Positions 1 to 33,194 of a DNA stretch of 64,000 nt are shown here, in pieces. The translations under genes were made by a program, and so were the position numbers. This DNA comes from an uncultured virus (IMG/VR IMGVR_UViG_3300032245_001228) (Duplodnaviria > Heunggongvirae > Uroviricota > Caudoviricetes). Each line of letters opens with the position of its first letter. Within the stretch, counting starts at the first letter, position 1. Location: the IMG/VR virus record IMGVR_UViG_3300032245_001228, one strand, 5' to 3'. Under the pieces are notes generated by a model. It ran no database searches. It saw only the letters and a list, made by a program, of their open reading frames with translations, and had not been told where the DNA came from.

Positions 1-1056
1 TCCAAATACTTTACCTCTAGATTCAACTGTTTTATTAATTGCCTCTGTTGTTTCTCCAACTTTTAATATAGGTTGAGGTTTTTTATTTATTGGCAAGTTT
101 GCTTTAATAGATTCTCTTTCAGATAAAACTGATTCTCTAACTTCATCTATTGTTTTCATAGCTGATTGCATTGCGGGTGTTTGCGGTTCATTTAAATCAA
201 AACCAACACTTGCAAGAATATGATTTTTAAGAGCAGAATATTTATCTTGATGAACAAAATTTAATTTTTGTCTTCTACCTAAGTTTTGTAGTGTACTTTT
301 TGCATTAGACGAATCAAAAGGACTATCAACTATAGCTTGAGTTAATTCTTTGAATCTTGGAAAATCATTTATATTTGTTGTTATTGGACGATTTGCAGTT
401 GGTACAGGTAAGTTTATTACTGGAGAATTTGCAGCTATTCCAGGTAAGTGAAGCGGATAAGGGCTTTTGTATCCAGTTTTTCCAACCATCAATTCATAAA
501 CAGCTGGATGATTTTTTTGCAGCATTTTAATATCTTCAGCTATTTCATCATGCGATACTCTCATGCTTACAAAGCCCCTTGGCTTAGATGGCCAAGGACT
601 ATTCCAACTATCTTTAATAAAGTAATTAACTTCGCCCGTCTCACGTAATCTTATAATCGAATGCTTGCCTTCTTGAGCCCCTAAAGCATGTTTGGACCAA
701 TCAATCTCACCGGTTATTTCACTTATAAAATTATAACCAGTAGTAAATCTACCTGAGATTTTATCGGTAAATTTTACGTTCTGATGTAAATTTGCTGGGT
801 CCATTGGTGCTAGTAAATGAGATATACCCGTATCTTTATGATACAGAGCCGCTATTACTCTGTCTCTTTCTTCTAGCGACGATGGATAGGCTGTGTATGC
901 TTTACCTGGTCCATGATTGCCTCTACCACTGCCACCTTTGAATTCAATTTTAGTAACATTCCTTAAATTATCTTCTATCGCTTTAAAGGTTTCTGGGTTG
1001 TTATTTATTGGATCAAAATGCAATTTCCAACCGGTAGAAGTACTAATTTTAGCCAT
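1..1056 (-). CDS. Protein with N-terminal OspF/SpvC/LanKC-N-like phosphothreonine lyase domain (3' end runs off the window)
   Basis: Not in the ORF track. ATG at 1056 overlaps the upstream stop (TAATG) and the frame stays open to position 1. Manual translation: MAKISTSTGWKLHFDP...KIEFKGGSGRGNHGPGKAYTAYPSSLEERDRVIAAL...KISGRF, matching GWKxH / FK / GKxxTxYP / R[YF] of class III-IV lanthipeptide lyase domains. Confidence 0.6.
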   Translation of the reverse strand, partial: MAKISTSTGWKLHFDPINNNPETFKAIEDNLRNVTKIEFKGGSGRGNHGPGKAYTAYPSSLEERDRVIAALYHKDTGISHLLAPMDPANLHQNVKFTDKISGRFTTGYNFISEITGEIDWSKHALGAQEGKHSIIRLRETGEVNYFIKDSWNSPWPSKPRGFVSMRVSHDEIAEDIKMLQKNHPAVYELMVGKTGYKSPYPLHLPGIAANSPVINLPVPTANRPITTNINDFPRFKELTQAIVDSPFDSSNAKSTLQNLGRRQKLNFVHQDKYSALKNHILASVGFDLNEPQTPAMQSAMKTIDEVRESVLSERESIKANLPINKKPQPILKVGETTEAINKTVESRGKVFG

Positions 1057-2499
1057 TAGAATCTCTTACCTAAAATAGTTGCAGCAGCAGCAGCATCTCT
1101 TAATAAACCAGATTTAGCAATGCCTCCAGCAACAGCAGCAGATGCATCCATAGATGTTTCTAATAAACGACTAGATCCTCTATTCATAAGAAATCTCTCT
1201 ACTTTATCAGATTTTGAAATCGCACCTGCCAGGCCTTCGTCTAACCCTTTTGCTTTTTGTGCAACACGAGCAGTATAATGAGACATATCGTCTGTTCCGT
1301 ATTTCTGGGTTTGCTTGAAGATAAGCAAGCGCCGTTTCTCTGCCTCCCTTTTCATATTCATCTGCCATTCTAGAAAATCGATGAAACTGATGCCCTTCTG
1401 GAAGGCCAGCCATAAATGCTCCGCCTCTTGGACCTCTAGCTAATTGTCCTTCTAACGATTCAACAAGCTTTATATTTTTTCCAACTGCAACACTTTCAAT
1501 AGCATTGTCTACAGCTTCATGACCTCTTCCCATTAATACTGATCTATCTATAATCTCTCTGCCGATAGAACTTTCTTCTGCGAAAATACCATGTCTAGTC
1601 ATCATTTGTAACACTAATTTTTCAGATTCACCCCTAGACATTCCAGCAGGAATAGCTACTCTATCTAAGACATCTTGAGTTCCTTTAATTGCTCTAGCTG
1701 AGGTATCTGGTACGTTAATATCTGGAAAAACATTTTTTGTATCAGCTGAAGTTAAGTAAACAGAAAAATCATCACCTCTAGCACTAACTTGATTATTTAC
1801 AGAATCTTTAAATCCTGTTCTAGCATCCCATCCATATGAATGTCCCGCTAAAGAATCACCCGCTGTAACCTGTCCAAAACCAGTTGTTCTTATTTTATCT
1901 CCAATTTCAATAGTAGAACTTAGACTGTGATGCAAGAAATATGATCTTCCATCTGGTGCATAATGAATGCTTCCATTAGCAAAATCTACAGCTGTTTTAC
2001 CAGCAGCTTCTTTTTCTACTGGGGACACCACCCTAAATCCTTTGCTAGACATCCAACTAGAATCATCTGGGGCATCCATATCAAAAGCTAGATTTGTTAA
2101 ATCTACAGGTTCTACTCTATAAACTAAAGGTGATCCACCGGACCTTTTTGCGGCCTTTTCTGCGTATGCTCTTGCTCTATCTATATCTTGGGTGGCAAAA
2201 GCGTTGCTTGTTAAATTAGTTAAGTGTTCGCTATTATGGACAGAAGGAACGCCCGCTACTTCTGCTGGAGCAATAACATCTCCTAAATTAAAAGCACTTG
2301 AGGTTCCATGAAACATTGGCAGAGTGGGATCAAATGGTTTGCCTGTCATTGCATTGATTGGCAAATCACTTAAACTTGCTACTGCGTCACCGGCAATTGT
2401 ATTATCAACTGCACCTCTAGGCATAGGGGGATTAACTCTAATTCTGGGCCTAGGCGGATCAACTTTGATCCTAGGTCTTCCATTATCAAAAACGCCCAT
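1056..2499 (-). CDS. Arr-like ADP-ribosyltransferase domain protein, second degenerate ART-like repeat, frameshift near 1300
   Basis: MFHGTSSAFNLGDVIAP...AFATQDIDRARAYA...VYRVEP...SWMSSKGFRVV resembles the rifampin ADP-ribosyltransferase fold. ORFs 1207..2511 and 1056..1361 join near ANPE/KYGTDD. Likely start is ATG 2499 after GAGG. Confidence 0.65.
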
Positions 2500-2517
2500 A
2501 AAAATCCTCAAGACTTA

Positions 2518-2780: not shown

Positions 2781-3170
2781 ATGCAAAACTATTGGCTTTC
2801 TGATGTTAATTATCAAAAAACATTAATTAAAAATATTAGTGAAGCTGCAAAAAAGGCCGTCCCTGAAGACAATGAGCCAGAAGACGATTCTGAAGATACA
2901 CCAAAATCAAACTTAACTGAACGTCAAAATATGATGTATGAAAACTACGAGTCAGTAGTCGAAATGCATGGAATGTTTGACCAATCCTCAAAAGCCAATG
3001 GTGCCCACTATGCTCCAGGTCAACTAAACCCTTTTAAGAATGAGGGATTAATTTGTGGTAATTGTGTATTTTTTCAGGGCGGCGGCGGATGCGAAATTGT
3101 TTCTGGCAGAATAGATCCTAATGGTATTTGCAAATTATGGATCATACCACAGGAGTTAATTAAAAAATAA
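2781..3170 (+). CDS. Protein with C-terminal HiPIP-like four-Cys domain
   Basis: CGNCVFFQGGGGCEIVSGRIDPNGICKLW follows the Cx2C...C...GxC spacing of high-potential iron-sulfur proteins. Confidence 0.6.
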   Translation: MQNYWLSDVNYQKTLIKNISEAAKKAVPEDNEPEDDSEDTPKSNLTERQNMMYENYESVVEMHGMFDQSSKANGAHYAPGQLNPFKNEGLICGNCVFFQGGGGCEIVSGRIDPNGICKLWIIPQELIKK

Positions 3171-3415
3171 TGAGAGTATGGATTGACCAAGACTTATGTA
3201 CTGGAGATGGACTATGCGCAGAGATAGCACCAGATGTATTTCATATGATGCCAGATGGTCTTGCGTATGTAAAAGAAGGAAACAAGATTTATGCGGACGC
3301 TGTGGGGAACCCCCAAGGAGCCGCTGGTCTCGCTTCTTTTCCAGACGATAGACTTTCAGACGTTATCGAGGCAGCTGAAGAGTGCCCGGGTGAGTGCATT
3401 TTCCTAGAGCCATAG
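3170..3415 (+). CDS. Single-cluster ferredoxin (3Fe-4S/4Fe-4S), actinobacterial type
   Basis: MRVWIDQDLCTGDGLCAEIAPDVF...AAEECPGECI; Cx2Dx2C...CP. Confidence 0.92.
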   Translation: MRVWIDQDLCTGDGLCAEIAPDVFHMMPDGLAYVKEGNKIYADAVGNPQGAAGLASFPDDRLSDVIEAAEECPGECIFLEP

Positions 3416-4963: not shown

Positions 4964-7900
4964 TTATTCTGTGTCGTCGTTCTTTAAAAGAACATGTATG
5001 TAATGAACAGCTAATGCAACACCTGTTGCTATCATGGCTGTCTTTCTTGTGTCGCCGGACAATGTAATGAATACTACAACGCTACCAGCTAATGTAAATG
5101 ATAGTGCTGCTGTTTCGTTGACAAACTTCCTTACCAGTCCGAGCCAACTTATTTTTCTTTTCCATGTACCCTCCTCTAGGTAGTAATTAAATATGCTATT
5201 TCTTGTGTACTCTTTATCGTCTTCGTCGTCCAAACCAGCTATTTCTCCTGCTGGTTCTTCGCCTTCTTCTTCTCTTCTACTGCGTCCTTCTGGACTAGTA
5301 CTGCCAGATCCCCCTGAACCACCACCAGATCCACCTGTAGAGCCTCCAGAAGGCCCTCCAGTGGCTGCAGCTCCAACAACGCCAGCAACAGCTGTAGTGG
5401 CTGCTATAAGCGTTCTACGGCTTCCTACGTCAACCTGTGAGCCAACTGGAACGTAGTCATCCAGACCCTCACCATAGATGTCAATGGTAGCTTCAAAAGT
5501 ATTTTTAATTTCTTCAGGAGCATTAGTTACAGCCTCAACAAGTGCTGCCTCTTGCTCCTGGGTCAGGTCTCCAACAGGAATAGTTTCGAACACAGCTTCA
5601 GCTTGAGTAGTATCAATACTTTCGAGAACTTTAGAACTGCTGGCAAGGGCGGTTGCCTGGTCTTCTGTTACGCCGTTTTCAAGTACTGCATCAACAGCTT
5701 CAGCAACTTGTTCTTCAGATACAGTATCGGATTCAAGAACATTTAAAACTTCAGCAAATTGCTCATCAGTAATATCTTCGGTAATAATAGAATCTATAAC
5801 TGCAGTGAATTGTTCATCAGACAATGGCTCATCAAAAACCGCATCAAGAACTGCAGCAAATTCTTCTACAGAAACGTCAGCTGACAATATCGCATCAAGT
5901 GCTGCCACTAATACTTCTGGATCTGCGTCTGCAGTAAACACTGCATTCAGAACTTCGGTCAACTGTTCAACAGATATATCAGAAGTAAAAATATCTTCTA
6001 GTACTGCGGCCACTTCCTCTGAAGAAGTAGTATCTATATTATCTATAATATTATTTATTTCTTCATCAGTAAAATCAGTTGTTTCATCTGGTATAGTATC
6101 TACAGGAGGTTCAGTTGATTCTGTTTCAGGTTCTGTTGTTGTTGTATCTGGCTCTGTCGTTGTTGTTGTTGTTTCTTCAGGCAGCGTCGCCTCTGTGGTT
6201 GTTGTGGTCTCTTCTGGGATTGTGGTCTCTGGCTCAGGCGCTACAGGGACGACTACTGCCACTGGCTCTGTGGTCGTTGTTGGCGGTTCCGTCGTTGTTG
6301 TTGTTGAACTACTTGTAGAAGTTGAATTTGGATCAACAGTAGTACTCGTAGAGTTTGGGTCAATCGTACTACTTGTAGATGAACTTGTTGTATTTGGAAC
6401 AGTTGTTGTAGTAGTGGTTGTTGTGGTTGTAGTAGTAGTCGTAGTTGTTGTGGTTGTAGTTGTGGTAACTACAGTATTTGAGTCATCTACGTATGAATAT
6501 CCACCAACAATATCTGTTCCGTTGTCGTCAAATGTATTATTGCGTGCAGTTGACCATGAGTTTACATCTACGCCATTATAAGACTTTGTTCCATTATTGA
6601 AGTAGTTGTCAAAGACTATTGCAATTGTGTTATTTCTAAATGTGTTTCCCTCGATTAATTGGTTGTCAACACCAGGGGTCCACGAGGTTGGAATCCACGA
6701 AAACGTCTTTACTGCATATGTATTTCCTGTAAATGTTGAATTCAATACCTGTAATCGGTTAAGTCCCTGAAGCTGGAGGGCTACACCGTTGCTTCTAAAT
6801 GTTGAATTATTAACTTTTACAAAACGTTCTGTCCCAACAGCTGTTCCATTGTTCTCAAATAAAGAATTATTTATATAGATGCGGTCTGAGTAGTCTGAAT
6901 CTGTCAAACTTTTTGTACTTGGTGTTGAACCATAGTCTGAGTTAAGTCCGCCGTTTAAATATGTAAATTCACAATTATTAAATGTTGAGACAGCACTATT
7001 TCTTTGATGCCATATGTAACCATTTGAAGCTGTGAACTTGACATTATTAACTACAAATGTTCCATTATTTGTCCATACAATTCCGCCAGTTGCGTTCTTG
7101 CCTCGCTTAAATGTCATATCTTCTATGGTTATAGTTCTTGAACCATTGTTATAAATAGAACGATATAAATTATCTCCATCAATGATTGTAGTTGTCATGC
7201 CTGTACCTGTGATCGTCACTGCATCAGTGATTGCTGGAAGATCAGATGTAAGCGTAATCGTCCCGGTATTATTTGCGTCGAACGTAATCGTATTTATCGT
7301 TGCAGAGGCATTTGCCGCGTTGATTGCCCAGCGCAATGAGCCAGCGGAGCCATCATCTAATAGATTAGTCACCTTGACAAATGTTGGAGCTGGGACTGTG
7401 ATAGAAGCTGGTGAGTTCGCTGTAAGTGATCCGATTGAATTTGTCTTTGTTACTTGGACTCGGATCTGCTTACCAACTTCTGTTGAGTTGACGACGTATG
7501 CAGAAGCTGTTGCACCAGAGATATTTGCCCATGTGCACGAAGCTGGGTCACAAGACTGCCATTGATATGTGGTTGATGTGACGGCTGAGCCACCATCTCC
7601 CCAAGTTCCATCGTTGGCTGTAAGGGTTTCGCCATACGCAATGTCTCCAGATATTGATGTTCCACCAGATGTGGTTGGGGCAGTGGCTCCCTGGAGGATT
7701 GCAAAAGATTGAGCAACTGTTGCTGCTGCTACATAAGAATTATTTGAGGAACTATTTGCAGAAATAATGCAAGTTCCAGTTTGATTAGCCAATACTGTAA
7801 CTGTTGCAGTAGACACTCCGTTGGCATTTGTTGATGAGCCAACCGTGCATTTGCTAGTGGTGCTTGAGGTAAAAGCAACTAGTTCCCCAGATGATGCCGA

Positions 7901-8779
7901 AGCTGTGATGCTAAACGTCTGATTTGATCCTGAACGGATTACGTCTGAAGGCTGAGCAAAAGTAATTGTATTTGGACTTGCAACAAAAATTGAAGGGTCA
8001 ATATACATTGATGCTCCAAGTGCTTTTCCGCCAGTTGCATCGTAAGTTCCGTTTACAAATCGGAATCTGTAATAACCACTACTAGGGACTACTCCTGTTG
8101 ATGTAGTCCAACCCTGGAGTTGTCCACGACCATAGGCAACAAGTGTTGATGTTGAATTAGAGCCGTAGTTATATCCACTCCCAGTTGATTGAACTTCTAC
8201 GAGATATCCATACGATTCATAGTCATCTCCGCCACCAGCAGCAGCCCAGTCAAATGAAATTGCTTGGCCCTGTGTTGCCGGAAATGCTTCTGTCCAAATC
8301 TCTGGACCAAATGCAGAACCATACGTTGCATGTCCGTTACATGAGTTTGAGTACGGACCAATATTTCCAGAAGAATAAAGTTGTAATACCCCAGAACGGT
8401 TATCATAAGCCTGATTTTGCCAAGTTGCATAGTACATCGTCTGCTGATTAGCCGCAGCTTCACCGCTTTCATACATTTGTGCAGTCTGTGTGTAGTTCTT
8501 ATTTGTTACATAAGAATATGGGTCACCAGATAATGCGTCAGTTCCAGACATTGTGTATGGTCCAATACCCTGCTTTGTCAATGCACCACACTGACTTCTA
8601 CTGGCCATAGAGCCAAGAACAACTTGTCCTGCTGTGGTATTTTCAAAAACTGGGGAAAGAGCATGAGCTGGTTTAGCCGATCCAATTGGCGGAACAAAAG
8701 ACCCTATTAAAAATAACGGAACAAAAATCCATGCGGCTTTGCGCGTAAAAGCATAGCGTAATCTATTAGTAATTTTCAT
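4964..8779 (-). CDS. Large exported, membrane-anchored surface protein (Ig-like domains, right-handed beta-helix, mucin-like Thr stalk, acidic repeats, C-terminal TM pair)
   Basis: N-terminal signal ending AHA; GSLRWAI plus xFxxN beta-helix repeats; poly-Thr; 17-aa acidic repeats; two C-terminal hydrophobic helices. Confidence 0.8.
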   Translation of the reverse strand: MKITNRLRYAFTRKAAWIFVPLFLIGSFVPPIGSAKPAHALSPVFENTTAGQVVLGSMASRSQCGALTKQGIGPYTMSGTDALSGDPYSYVTNKNYTQTAQMYESGEAAANQQTMYYATWQNQAYDNRSGVLQLYSSGNIGPYSNSCNGHATYGSAFGPEIWTEAFPATQGQAISFDWAAAGGGDDYESYGYLVEVQSTGSGYNYGSNSTSTLVAYGRGQLQGWTTSTGVVPSSGYYRFRFVNGTYDATGGKALGASMYIDPSIFVASPNTITFAQPSDVIRSGSNQTFSITASASSGELVAFTSSTTSKCTVGSSTNANGVSTATVTVLANQTGTCIISANSSSNNSYVAAATVAQSFAILQGATAPTTSGGTSISGDIAYGETLTANDGTWGDGGSAVTSTTYQWQSCDPASCTWANISGATASAYVVNSTEVGKQIRVQVTKTNSIGSLTANSPASITVPAPTFVKVTNLLDDGSAGSLRWAINAANASATINTITFDANNTGTITLTSDLPAITDAVTITGTGMTTTIIDGDNLYRSIYNNGSRTITIEDMTFKRGKNATGGIVWTNNGTFVVNNVKFTASNGYIWHQRNSAVSTFNNCEFTYLNGGLNSDYGSTPSTKSLTDSDYSDRIYINNSLFENNGTAVGTERFVKVNNSTFRSNGVALQLQGLNRLQVLNSTFTGNTYAVKTFSWIPTSWTPGVDNQLIEGNTFRNNTIAIVFDNYFNNGTKSYNGVDVNSWSTARNNTFDDNGTDIVGGYSYVDDSNTVVTTTTTTTTTTTTTTTTTTTTTTVPNTTSSSTSSTIDPNSTSTTVDPNSTSTSSSTTTTTEPPTTTTEPVAVVVPVAPEPETTIPEETTTTTEATLPEETTTTTTEPDTTTTEPETESTEPPVDTIPDETTDFTDEEINNIIDNIDTTSSEEVAAVLEDIFTSDISVEQLTEVLNAVFTADADPEVLVAALDAILSADVSVEEFAAVLDAVFDEPLSDEQFTAVIDSIITEDITDEQFAEVLNVLESDTVSEEQVAEAVDAVLENGVTEDQATALASSSKVLESIDTTQAEAVFETIPVGDLTQEQEAALVEAVTNAPEEIKNTFEATIDIYGEGLDDYVPVGSQVDVGSRRTLIAATTAVAGVVGAAATGGPSGGSTGGSGGGSGGSGSTSPEGRSRREEEGEEPAGEIAGLDDEDDKEYTRNSIFNYYLEEGTWKRKISWLGLVRKFVNETAALSFTLAGSVVVFITLSGDTRKTAMIATGVALAVHYIHVLLKNDDTE
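5650..6030 (-). repeat. About seven 17-aa acidic amphipathic repeats
   Basis: e.g. ISVEQLTEVLNAVFTAD / VSVEEFAAVLDAVFDEP / LSDEQFTAVIDSIITED; boundaries approximate. Confidence 0.7.
6401..6466 (-). repeat. 22 consecutive Thr codons
   Basis: (NGT)22 on + strand with mixed synonymous codons. Confidence 0.9.
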
Positions 8780-29870: not shown

Positions 29871-32800
29871 TTATATCTCCAATTCTAATATCTGTTCAAT
29901 CAAAGGTAAAACTTTTCCTGATGCTAGTATATCAAATTTATATACAAATTTACGATTATTATCTATCATTTCTAAAAATACTGGTCTATTTCCCTTATTG
30001 TTTGAAATCAAATCATATATCTTTTCTACAGTTGTTTGAGATACTTCACTACTAATCTCCAGCATTATGGGCTTGCCACCAGAGAATATCTTTGCGTCGA
30101 CTTTTTCTGATGAGTTATAGAATAATTTAGTTACAGAATTTTCTTCATCACTTTCTTTATTCAAGAAACCATTTATTACAAATATATCTCCAGAATTAAA
30201 ATAGTCATCGCTTATATCTTTAGCATTCTTGGGGAAAATGATTACCTCTACGCTAGAAGTTATATCTTCTATTTCTAACTTATACATCTTTTGACCTTTT
30301 TTAGTTGTCATCTTTTTGTTAGAAACAATAATCCCACCCACCTTAACTGCAGATCCTCCAGGAAGTTCATTAAGATCAATAATCTCATTTGAGATTTGAT
30401 TCTTTAATATATCCCAAATGCCCAACACTGGGTGATTTGTAACGTAGATACCTAGCTTTTCTTTTTCTTTTTCAAGAACTTCTAATTCTATTCTTCTACT
30501 TAATTCTATATTTTGATCTCCAACTAGTTCATCTAACGCGCCAGATAAAGCTAAGTTTTCTAGTGTTGATTTTTTAAGAACTGATGGATGACATCTTCTA
30601 TAGAAATCATGAAGCGAAACATAAGGACTATTTAAATCTCTTGACTCAACTATTGCATCAGCAATTGATACACCAATGCCGTCGATAGCTGACAGACCAA
30701 AAATTATTGATTCTTTATTAACAACTTCAAAATCTATTCCAGAATAATTAACAGATGGTGGTAAAACTTCTACGTTTAATTTTCTACAATCCGAAAGATA
30801 CAACGCTTGTTTGTCTTTATTGCCTACCACCGAACTCATTAAAGCAGCCATATACTCAACAGTATAGTTAGCCTTTAGGTAAGCTGTAGTGTATGAGATC
30901 ATAGCGTAGCTTGCAGCGTGTGCTCTGTTGAATCCATAGCCACCAAAGTATTCAATATCCGAATAAATTTTATTAGCTTTATCTTCAGATATGTCTGATG
31001 TATTAACGCATCCATCAACAAACTTTTTTCTAAATAAAGAAATTTTATCCATTTGTTTTTTGCCAATAGCCTTGCGTAAGTCATCAGCTTCGGCAGATGT
31101 AAAGCCAGCTAACTCCCTAGAAACGCCAAGAACATCTTCTTGATACAGCATGATGCCAAGCGATGGACCCAATACTTTTTCTAACTTAGGATGATCGTAT
31201 GCTATTTTTGATCTTCCATGTTTTCTATCTATATATAATTTATCCATTCCAGAACCCATAGGACCTGGTCTATATAACGATATTAGAGCCATTATGTCTT
31301 CTATGTTTTGTGGTTGCATTTGAACCATTAACTGTCTCATTCCAGATGATTCCAATTGGAACACTCCAGCGGAATTGCCTTTACACAATTCTTCATAGGT
31401 TCTTGGATCATCTAATGGAATAAATTCTATATCAATAATTTCTTGTCTATTCTTTTCTATAAGCTTCAAACAAGAATCTATAACACCAAGGTTTCTTAAA
31501 CCTAAGAAGTCAATCTTTAACAAGCCACACTGCTCTACTCTTCCCATATCCCATTGGGTTACTAACGGAGCGTCTACGCCCTTTTGCATTACAGGCAGAT
31601 AGTCTGTTAGTGGGCCTTTAGAAATAACAACTCCAGCAGCGTGTATGCCTGTTTGACGGACTAGACCTTCTAGTCCAACGGCTGTATCAACAATTAATTT
31701 TGAATCACTATTTAAATTGTATTCAGTTTTAAACTCACTAACTTCCATACATTCTGAAAGGCTTTTTGATATGCCTAAAACAGGAGGTGGAACAAGTTTA
31801 GCTATCTTATCTCCAGATATAAAATCATATCCTAAAGCTCTAGCTGCGTCTCGCAAGGACTGTCTAGCTCCAGTTCTATTGAATGTGCATATATGAGCAA
31901 CTCTGTCATCGCCATATTTAGTTCTTGCATATTCTATTACTTTATCTCTGTGTCTATCATCAAAGTCTAAGTCAATATCTGGCATCGACTTTCTTCCTTC
32001 GACCAAGAATCTTTCAAACATTAAACCAAATCTAATTGGATCTAAGTTTGTAATATCAAAAGCATATGACAAAACACTACCTGCTGCAGAGCCTCTACCC
32101 CAGCCAACTCTAATACTGTTGTCTTTTGCCCACTTAACTAAATCAGAAACAACTAAGAAGTATTCAGAAAATCCCATCTCTTTTACTACTTTGATTTCAT
32201 GATTAGCTCTATCGATTATGTCCTGAGGCAATGGATTGCCATATCTTTTCTTCAATCCATCCCAGGCTAATCTTTCAAAATATTCGGTTGAATTTTCGTT
32301 GGTAGGTATAGGAAAATCTGGGAAGTGAATTTCACCCAAGTTCAAATTTAAATCAACCATGTCATTTACATGCATAGTGGTTTTTAACCACTCATCAGAA
32401 AATACTGAAGCCATGTCATCGTATGATTGAAGATAGAATTTATCTCCAGAAAAAGAAAATCTATCAGGAGTATTAATATTCGAGTTGGTAGCAACGCAAA
32501 GCATTATGTCATGAGCTTTTGCATCGTGCTGATGGACGTAATGGCAATCGCCAGTAGGAACTATTCTGGCCCCTATGGTCTTAGCTATCTTTATTAGATC
32601 TGGTATTATTTTTTTCTGTTCTTCTAAATCGTGGTTTTGAACCTCAATAAAATAATTGTCTTTACCAACTATAGCCTGCATGGTCGCAGCATGGTTTAAT
32701 GCCGTGTTGTAATCGTTTCTAAGCAGGGCTTGTGACACTTCCCCGTTCAGACACCCAGACAGCACTATTACGCCCTCTGAATGATCTGATATTAAATTGT

Positions 32801-33194
32801 GATCCAATCTAGGCTTAACGTAATACCCTTCCGTAAAAGCTCTAGAGGACATTTTAATTATATTATGATACCCAATATTATTCTTGGCCAATATAGTTAT
32901 ATGATATGGTCCTCTTTGCTCCCATTCGTTTTTTGATGGGCCGGATCTTTCTTCTTCATCTCTATCAAATCTTGTTTTTCTAGCTTGATAAAATTCAGAT
33001 CCTAATATTGGTTTAACGCCTACAGCCTTACCCGCATCGTAGAAGTCTAACCATGAGTGAATATTTCCATGGTCAGTTGTAGCTATCCCTGTCATACCAA
33101 GGGCCTTAGCTCTTTCTAGATATTCTTCTACTCTACCATGTCCGTCCAGCATGGAGAACACGGTATGATTATGTAGGTTCGTCCAATTCTTCAT
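29871..33194 (-). CDS. dnaE: DNA polymerase III alpha subunit (family C)
   Basis: PHP domain HNHT..SMLDG...TDHGN; GRGSAAGS; PDIDLDF; KIDFLGL; GYGFNRAHA; C-terminal OB fold. Confidence 0.97.
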   Translation of the reverse strand: MKNWTNLHNHTVFSMLDGHGRVEEYLERAKALGMTGIATTDHGNIHSWLDFYDAGKAVGVKPILGSEFYQARKTRFDRDEEERSGPSKNEWEQRGPYHITILAKNNIGYHNIIKMSSRAFTEGYYVKPRLDHNLISDHSEGVIVLSGCLNGEVSQALLRNDYNTALNHAATMQAIVGKDNYFIEVQNHDLEEQKKIIPDLIKIAKTIGARIVPTGDCHYVHQHDAKAHDIMLCVATNSNINTPDRFSFSGDKFYLQSYDDMASVFSDEWLKTTMHVNDMVDLNLNLGEIHFPDFPIPTNENSTEYFERLAWDGLKKRYGNPLPQDIIDRANHEIKVVKEMGFSEYFLVVSDLVKWAKDNSIRVGWGRGSAAGSVLSYAFDITNLDPIRFGLMFERFLVEGRKSMPDIDLDFDDRHRDKVIEYARTKYGDDRVAHICTFNRTGARQSLRDAARALGYDFISGDKIAKLVPPPVLGISKSLSECMEVSEFKTEYNLNSDSKLIVDTAVGLEGLVRQTGIHAAGVVISKGPLTDYLPVMQKGVDAPLVTQWDMGRVEQCGLLKIDFLGLRNLGVIDSCLKLIEKNRQEIIDIEFIPLDDPRTYEELCKGNSAGVFQLESSGMRQLMVQMQPQNIEDIMALISLYRPGPMGSGMDKLYIDRKHGRSKIAYDHPKLEKVLGPSLGIMLYQEDVLGVSRELAGFTSAEADDLRKAIGKKQMDKISLFRKKFVDGCVNTSDISEDKANKIYSDIEYFGGYGFNRAHAASYAMISYTTAYLKANYTVEYMAALMSSVVGNKDKQALYLSDCRKLNVEVLPPSVNYSGIDFEVVNKESIIFGLSAIDGIGVSIADAIVESRDLNSPYVSLHDFYRRCHPSVLKKSTLENLALSGALDELVGDQNIELSRRIELEVLEKEKEKLGIYVTNHPVLGIWDILKNQISNEIIDLNELPGGSAVKVGGIIVSNKKMTTKKGQKMYKLEIEDITSSVEVIIFPKNAKDISDDYFNSGDIFVINGFLNKESDEENSVTKLFYNSSEKVDAKIFSGGKPIMLEISSEVSQTTVEKIYDLISNNKGNRPVFLEMIDNNRKFVYKFDILASGKVLPLIEQILELEI

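Follow-up and report, generated by a model that had tools for sequence, protein, structure and literature searches.

A candidate stand-alone phosphoserine/phosphothreonine lyase with a hydrophobic C-terminal tail in an uncultured large phage

A gene for a candidate phosphoserine/phosphothreonine (pSer/pThr) lyase lies at the start of a 64,000-nucleotide stretch of DNA from an uncultured Caudoviricetes virus (IMG/VR record IMGVR_UViG_3300032245_001228), here called the window and always meaning the whole stretch analysed. Its N-terminal domain is related to a superfamily that includes the effectors OspF and SpvC along with the lyase domain at the N-terminus of class III/IV lanthipeptide synthetases. 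The gene is on the minus strand (1..1056); its open reading frame (ORF) begins with an ATG at 1056 and passes the window start, leaving the 3' end open and the first 352 of 496 codons visible. The protein reads MAKISTSTGWKLHFDP...KIEFKGGSGRGNHGPGKAYTAYPSSLEERDR...DKISGRFTTGY, in which MAKISTSTGWKLHFDP is followed by KIEFKGG, then GPGKAYTAYPSSLEERDR and then ISGRFTTGY. The motifs GWKLH, IEFK, GKAYTAYPSS and SGRF, reported by the first-pass annotation of this DNA, are present in the order it gave, with the codons verified by hand. The full-length protein (P0001), recovered from a 153,062-base contig, has 496 amino acids and is 100% identical over the visible part; the last 144 codons, including a C-terminal hydrophobic/basic tail, lie beyond the window start. 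P0001 has no Pfam match at E ≤ 1e-3 and, thus, the C-terminal part that the first-pass annotation did not see holds neither a kinase nor a cyclase. The lyase-like domain, delimited by homolog alignment and an AlphaFold2 model, spans residues 1-212 (421..1056, minus strand), and residues 1-105 (740-1056) are exactly the motif-bearing part. Judged by homologs at E ≤ 1e-3 with 33-94% identity, the ORF is a real gene.

The family of P0001 is small, with about 45 sequences recovered from uncultured, apparently freshwater, large phages. Homologs at E ≤ 1e-3 number 17 in an initial protein-collection search and 23 in an exhaustive phmmer search of 1.84 billion representatives. A profile search for longer proteins among 5.8 billion sequences returns family members in 29 of 30 matches, the remaining one being P0084 (E 5.9), a protein with RamC_N and kinase domains. 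No match to the lyase-like protein or to its ADP-ribosyltransferase (ART)-like neighbor (described below) is found by tblastn in 50,697 phage records, the nearest viral record (G001) has no homolog, and single-sequence phmmer against the PDB gives only a chance match to ACE2. In close homologs, an N-terminal domain of about 210 residues is conserved (57-94% identity), the linker that follows varies, and a tail forms the C-terminus. Three subfamilies are distinguished: subfamily A, which is compact and includes the window protein; subfamily B, in which GWKIH and FKYG are separated by an insertion of ~100 residues; and a sister family of small proteins from metagenome-assembled genomes of Patescibacteria/Saccharibacteria (P0035 and 34 relatives). 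The sister proteins (P0035, P0037-P0070, P0080 and P0081) are mostly of 170-340 amino acids and keep an Asp at position 93, and one of their domains ends a 1017-amino acid Pro-rich protein. Some phage proteins (P0018 and P0021) carry two lyase-like domains in tandem. Apart from RamC_N matches below the cut-off, family members have no Pfam, PHROG, NCBIfam or PADLOC annotation.

Four alignments represent the family: A2 (8 close relatives), A3 (12 diverse domain sequences), A4 (the sister family) and A5 (41 sequences). When compared by hhalign with no shared members, the phage and sister families are related at 97.6% (E 3.7e-12); the corresponding figure for A3 against A4 (99.5%) is inflated, since A3 contains P0035. 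The only PDB matches of the A4 profile, designed beta-propeller repeats, are rejected as an artefact of the G-rich FKIG-GGG motif. The middle regions of P0012 and P0020 include, past the lyase domain, another conserved module (…GYLYHYAPKS-RD-IAK-GI…GPGK-FFF…), for which a Pfam scan of P0020 gives no match; the resulting architecture is polymorphic and multi-effector-like. Several family genes are split into two overlapping ORFs, the second of which bears the tail (L003 9980-12759, L004 683-3462, L002 4780-6727, and P0073). P0071 and the otherwise divergent P0073 share the end sequence …ITESTLV…ILDKE/EKQQ and, thus, the ORF break of the split genes is conserved.

The motif order had been read at first pass as the scaffold of the pSer/pThr lyases, and several kinds of comparison bear this out: HMMER aligns the GWK-x-H, FK and GK..T.YP motifs of the family to the ThurKC lyase domain, and profile-profile, fold and language-model searches concur. 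When searched against PDB sequences, the A3 profile gives 10 matches at E ≤ 10. The top six are class III LanKC enzymes without exception, namely 9wop and 9wj0 (E 7.5e-4), ThurKC 8sao, 8sap and 8sam (about 0.035) and 8w7l (0.39), each aligned over lyase-domain residues ~57-139. By hhalign, subfamily A matches a set of 10 RamC_N domains at 94.2% (E 1.1e-7; 77 columns, residues 6-86), the whole phage family at 92.3% and the sister family at 92.5%, compared to 0.2% for a reversed alignment and at most 0.9% for 30 column shuffles. The RamC_N set comprises P0084 and nine domains from bacterial genomes (loci L012-L025), the latter either Pfam-verified (114-172 bits) or 40-47% relatives of P0084; it is small and mostly of one clade, as only 3 of the 301 genomes from the phylum to which G002 belongs give matches in the RamC_N family search (and 0 of 14 control genomes). 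Weak RamC_N (PF25816) matches are also detected in 6 of the 12 A3 members (best E 0.0044). In the ESM Atlas, RamC_N or VRP3 is carried by each of the four matches listed (the best three and the top one from a further family set), whose feature scores of 0.80-0.83 serve as leads only; one of these clusters is mostly Uroviricota, and P0002 as the query gives no usable match. The hhalign comparison and its controls show the sequence link to the lyase domains to be real, if remote and dependent on family diversity.

The known lyases provide a map of the active site. In the available text of PMC10604976, ThurKC K65, H67, K94, K117, D152, R163 and R191 are equivalent to SpvC K104, H106, K136, R148, D201, R213 and R220, of which K104 is a phosphate ligand, H106 the general acid and K136 the proposed catalytic base. 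The same text reports that K65A, K94A and R163A variants of ThurKC abolished turnover, that H67A stalled processing and that D152A kept partial activity; it also describes a LanKC loop with K108 that faces the kinase domain and is absent from SpvC and OspF. The phage domain (coordinates on the minus strand) has G9-W-K11-L-H13 on strand 1 (1018..1032), with K11 aligned to ThurKC K65/SpvC K104 and H13 to H67/H106, followed by F39-K40-G-G (931..942), with K40 aligned to ThurKC K94/SpvC K136, and G51-K52-A-Y-T55-A-Y57-P58 (883..906), with K52 aligned to ThurKC K117/SpvC R148. By sequence, K40 and H13 align to the catalytic base Lys and the general acid His of the lyases. R103 of G102-R103-F104 (745..753) is likely the equivalent of ThurKC R163/SpvC R213, as placed by a low-confidence extended alignment only. 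The spacing of H13 to K40 (27 residues) is identical to that of ThurKC H67-K94, the spacing of K40 to K52 (12 residues) is identical to that of SpvC K136-R148, and the ~13-residue LanKC loop carrying ThurKC K108 is missing. The SpvC-like spacing and the absence of this kinase-contacting loop fit a free-standing enzyme.

Conservation of these motifs exceeds chance, as judged over 80 aligned domain copies. K40 and R103 are each kept in 79 copies, Y57 in 78, and T55 and F104 in all 80, while K/R52 is kept in 76, the other four forming a subgroup with the motif YGNWTAYP. K11 and H13 are present in all 61 copies in which the first strand is inside the aligned envelope, and the GWK-x-H motif is found in every subfamily B protein listed. 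Position 93 is Asn in 24 of 24 subfamily A copies, Asn, Ala or Ser in subfamily B, and Asp in 37 of 37 sister copies. In the window protein, the region expected to hold the catalytic Asp (ThurKC D152/SpvC D201) reads H91-Q92-N93 (778..786), with no Asp at these positions. A greedy, low-confidence alignment places the Asp of the RamC_N 'PFD' motif at position 91-92, occupied by His and Gln in this protein, and pairs R103 with the 'YYRY' Arg (ThurKC R163). Since D152A of ThurKC kept partial activity, an Asn at position 93 need not abolish catalysis. K11, H13, K40 and K52 are matched in sequence; the last Arg and the Asp are not placed.

With 8 close sequences, AlphaFold2 gives a poor model (predicted local distance difference test, pLDDT, 58.8), the Foldseek result of which is a lead only; with the 41 sequences of A5, domain 1-212 is modeled at a pLDDT of 91.9 and a predicted template modeling score of 0.89. 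Of the first 13 rows that Foldseek lists from the PDB, 12 are ThurKC, SalKC, PneKC, SpvC, VirA or OspF. VIA-align, run against 48,161 representative chains, ranks SalKC first (Z 5.5, 136 residues aligned, root-mean-square deviation (rmsd) 4.7), ThurKC second (Z 5.1, 139 residues, rmsd 5.1) and CuvL third (Z 4.8, 123 residues, rmsd 5.3); in each case the aligned span is residues 1-210 of the model and the target's lyase domain. In a second structural comparison, all of the top 12 rows are lyase-fold proteins (LanKC, LanL, LanY and HopA1). The BFVD viral structure library gives no match, its best template modeling (TM) score being below 0.3.

Of 43 phage-family proteins, about 28 have a C-terminal tail made of a hydrophobic, Ala/Gly-rich segment of 17 residues (Kyte-Doolittle 1.2-1.9) followed immediately by basic residues, and most of the exceptions are short, truncated or split forms. 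Like tails are found on a few unrelated neighbors, namely a 481-amino acid protein (L008) and a 146-amino acid protein (L003). The hydrophobic-plus-basic tail could serve as a membrane tether or as a targeting peptide; for a classic tail anchor, the topology would be odd, since the basic residues are at the extreme C-terminus. A C-terminal sorting signal of the cell-wall/exosortase type was considered and set aside: although the pattern is compatible, the protein lacks an N-terminal signal peptide, and its lyase domain begins at residue 9.

The gene upstream of the lyase-like gene (1207..2511, minus strand) encodes a 434-amino acid protein with an N-terminal region that weakly resembles Arr-type ARTs (PF12120, E 0.056, below the cut-off; phrog_2110, E 4e-9), and this gene is syntenic with the lyase gene in L002 and L005. 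A 101-amino acid ORF in another frame (1056..1361, minus strand) overlaps the end of the 434-amino acid ORF and has a C-terminus, rich in Ala and Gly, that is similar to the tails of P0012 and P0013. The two ORFs overlap by about 155 nt, and the two-frame layout recurs at L005 2795-4190 with 57-58% identity. This arrangement may reflect a programmed frameshift or two overlapping genes; a sequencing error is less likely, given the recurrence in L005.

The window belongs to a large phage that encodes a DnaE-type DNA polymerase, primase, helicase, class II ribonucleotide reductase and ThyX, together with virion structural proteins, a VanY-domain tail protein, and several glycosyl- and methyltransferases. 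The best phage matches of the DnaE-type polymerase (Pol III alpha, PHP-domain; 29871-33194, minus strand) are from Streptomyces phages (37% identity), a faint hint of an actinobacterial host. The first-pass annotation had noted no kinase motifs in the visible residues and no precursor peptide or transporter nearby, and no kinase, cyclase or transporter is detected in P0001, in the window proteins or in the 66 ORFs that flank the lyase gene in nine related loci. No kinase, LanC or transporter ATPase is detected among the 55 other window ORFs or these flanking ORFs, and no precursor peptide, protease or transporter among the 56 window proteins and the same 66 ORFs, a survey in which small Cys-rich ORFs were not systematically searched. 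The only transporter-like match is a weak ABC2_membrane match, below the cut-off, in a 180-amino acid ORF. Two other loci of the window may be mentioned. One (4964-8779, minus strand) encodes a 1271-amino acid protein that ends in two hydrophobic segments, the relatives of which end in …LAFTLAGS…TLSG…HY… and, in L011, begin with a legume-lectin domain (PF18483, E 3e-42); judged from these features, a large virion or surface protein that interacts with the envelope is a possible identity. The other (2781-3415, plus strand) encodes a small Cys-containing protein (MQNYWLS…, 129 amino acids) adjoining a 4Fe-4S ferredoxin (81 amino acids, PF13459, E 6.5e-18). The relative of the 129-amino acid protein in L008 has a weak HiPIP match, and in most related contigs the two genes are likewise syntenic with the lyase locus.

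Taken with the distant relation to the lyases, the absence of an attached kinase or cyclase makes possible a phage tool that erases host protein phosphorylation. On balance, P0001 is somewhat more probably than otherwise a stand-alone pSer/pThr lyase that works as an active phage effector, a reading drawn from sequence, model and analogy. It is largely supported, by several weak lines that agree and not by one strong match. A number of observations weigh against it. For the window protein, Pfam gives nothing at E ≤ 1 or even at E ≤ 10, and there is no PHROG, NCBIfam or PADLOC match; the best RamC_N match of its relatives reaches 17 bits against a curated cut-off of 27, leaving all such matches below it. 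The A2 profile finds no lyase among its five PDB matches and the whole-protein A5 profile reaches only E 0.027 amid low-complexity noise; the sequence link, thus, hangs on which sequences are aligned, and its confident part is limited to residues 6-86. The caution voiced at first pass that the Asp before the final Arg is not obvious was well placed: neither the conservation table nor the extended alignment locates an equivalent of SpvC D201/ThurKC D152 (N93 or H91/Q92 are found instead), and no equivalent of R191/R220 is found in the phage domain alignments. The Foldseek matches are at E 0.04-0.6 with TM scores of about 0.32-0.37. The best VIA-align Z (5.5) is barely above those of ferredoxin-like folds (4.0-4.7), in a range (Z under 8) where the program itself warns of a common arrangement, and SpvC and OspF are not among its top 50. 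With Z values this modest, the structural match is moderate at best, and the fold evidence is consistent with a lyase but not decisive.

Several of these points could be explained if the domain shared the fold and ancestry of the lyases and did another job, as a phospho-ligand/anion-binding module or an enzyme of other chemistry (acting on a phosphorylated small molecule, lipid or nucleotide). An Asp is not placed, the best candidate position holds Asn throughout subfamily A, an equivalent of the fourth phosphate ligand is not found, and domain residues ~110-210 (with IKDSWN, EDI and ELMVGKPGY-SPYP) are family-specific, with no counterpart in the confident alignments. The fold is, moreover, common to the non-lyases eIF4E and BLES03, according to the available text of PMC4159009. 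That text also gives eIF4E no equivalents of K136 and H106, and the residues that are near-invariant across three divergent subfamilies are those of the lyase base Lys, the acid His and two phosphate ligands; another job for the domain is considered unlikely, if worth keeping in mind.

A different partition of labor, in which P0001 is the lyase half of a split dehydration system with its kinase elsewhere in the phage or host, and puts dehydro-amino acids into one particular peptide or protein of the phage or host instead of erasing host signaling, for RiPP-like (of peptides made by ribosomes and modified after translation) or virion-protein maturation, has a precedent in the stand-alone lyases paired with separate kinases in lanthipeptide clusters (available text of PMC4159009), and the window is 64 kb of a contig of about 153 kb. 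The survey above, with its limit as to Cys-rich ORFs, offers no kinase, LanC or Cys-rich precursor, the conserved neighbor is an ART-like protein and not a kinase, and the kinase-contacting loop of the LanKC enzymes is lacking, making a split system rather improbable. Equally improbable is a convergent or chance resemblance, in which fortuitous motifs would sit on an unrelated ferredoxin-like alpha/beta fold. The lack of a Pfam match for the window protein, the A2 profile that finds no lyase in the PDB, and structural Z scores not separated from ferredoxin-like folds would all be expected of it, but independent methods converge on one superfamily, the hhalign controls stay at or below 0.9% compared to 94.2% for the real comparison, and the motif spacing is matched in ThurKC for the 27 residues between H and K, and in SpvC for the 12 between K and K/R.

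For a stand-alone lyase effector, a mechanism may be proposed by analogy with the known enzymes. The homology, the four conserved active-site residues that align with those of the lyases, and the lack of a kinase, cyclase and precursor are observed; activity, substrate, tail role and biological purpose are inferred. K11, K52 and R103 would hold the phosphate of pSer or pThr in a host protein, K40 would abstract the alpha-proton, and H13 would protonate the leaving phosphate, such that the target residue would become dehydroalanine or dehydrobutyrine and never be re-phosphorylated. Residues 1-212 would be joined by a linker of ~250 residues, in which Pfam and other scans of P0001 recognize no family, to the Ala/Gly-rich hydrophobic segment and the basic residues after it; this tail probably tethers or targets the enzyme to the membrane or the virion. 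The effector would, in this way, counter host Ser/Thr phosphorylation in signaling or in kinase-based defense. A bolder and quite tentative extension is a modular phage effector set, in which lyase domains (single or tandem) and ART-like or other modules share a common tail, and in which the tail-targeted enzyme eliminates the phosphothreonines of membrane Hanks kinases. The tail of such a set would either tether the enzyme to the membrane or act as a head/virion-loading peptide, much like an encapsulin cargo peptide, and the enzyme would reach the cell envelope at or soon after infection. Activation-loop phosphothreonines would then be lost irreversibly, and host kinase signaling or kinase-based defense might be shut in one step.

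To our knowledge, irreversible beta-elimination of protein phosphate is known only from the injected effectors of animal and plant pathogens and from lanthipeptide biosynthesis. Among the matches listed in a literature search, the text available describes no phage-encoded phospholyase, and the main text of a 2014 genome-wide survey of eliminylating domains (PMC4159009) does not include the words 'phage' or 'virus'. If active, the enzyme would represent a previously unrecognized phage way to disable host Ser/Thr kinase signaling or kinase-dependent defense, as well as a compact new phospho-eraser for protein chemistry. As the family is completely unannotated, alignments A3 or A5 could serve as the basis of a Pfam-type model.

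Among known systems, the lyase domain of LanKC/LanL enzymes (ThurKC 8SAO/8SAM, SalKC 9UGQ, PneKC 8W7L and CuvL 8CAR; RamC_N PF25816) provides the best profile and fold matches, with GWK-x-H, FK and GK..T.YP aligned residue for residue. Unlike these enzymes, P0001 is phage-encoded and has no kinase or LanC domain (by Pfam at E ≤ 1e-3, NCBIfam and PADLOC); its Asp152 equivalent is not evident, the C-terminal half of its domain is divergent, and its Pfam score is below the cut-off or absent. OspF/SpvC/VirA (VRP3 PF03536; 3I0U, 2P1W, 2Z8P and 3BO6) are similar in that the lyase domain is free-standing and, in the lyase reading of P0001, deployed by a parasite against its host, in the 12-residue K-to-K/R spacing of SpvC, and in their presence in the Foldseek top rows and ESM-feature clusters. 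By contrast, there is no sequence-level match to this group, K52 is in place of R148, equivalents of D201 and R220 are not identified, and the phage protein bears a long linker and a hydrophobic C-terminal tail with no type III secretion context and no MAPK-docking region, although no search aimed at a docking motif was made. HopA1/LanY (PF17914; 4RSW/4RSX; LxmY 9DK1-9DK3) share the predicted fold superfamily (VIA-align Z 4.5-5.0 over 90-128 residues) but no sequence similarity; LanY enzymes act in complex with a kinase (LxmKY). The Patescibacteria/Saccharibacteria sister family differs from the phage family in having Asp for N93, no phage-specific C-terminal half of the domain and no tail, and in being cellular. 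Its proteins are nonetheless the nearest relatives, with the same GWKLH, FK, GK..T.Y and GRF motifs; as some of these bacteria are episymbionts, the sister family would, if the lyase reading is true, suggest that the same weapon is used by cellular parasites.

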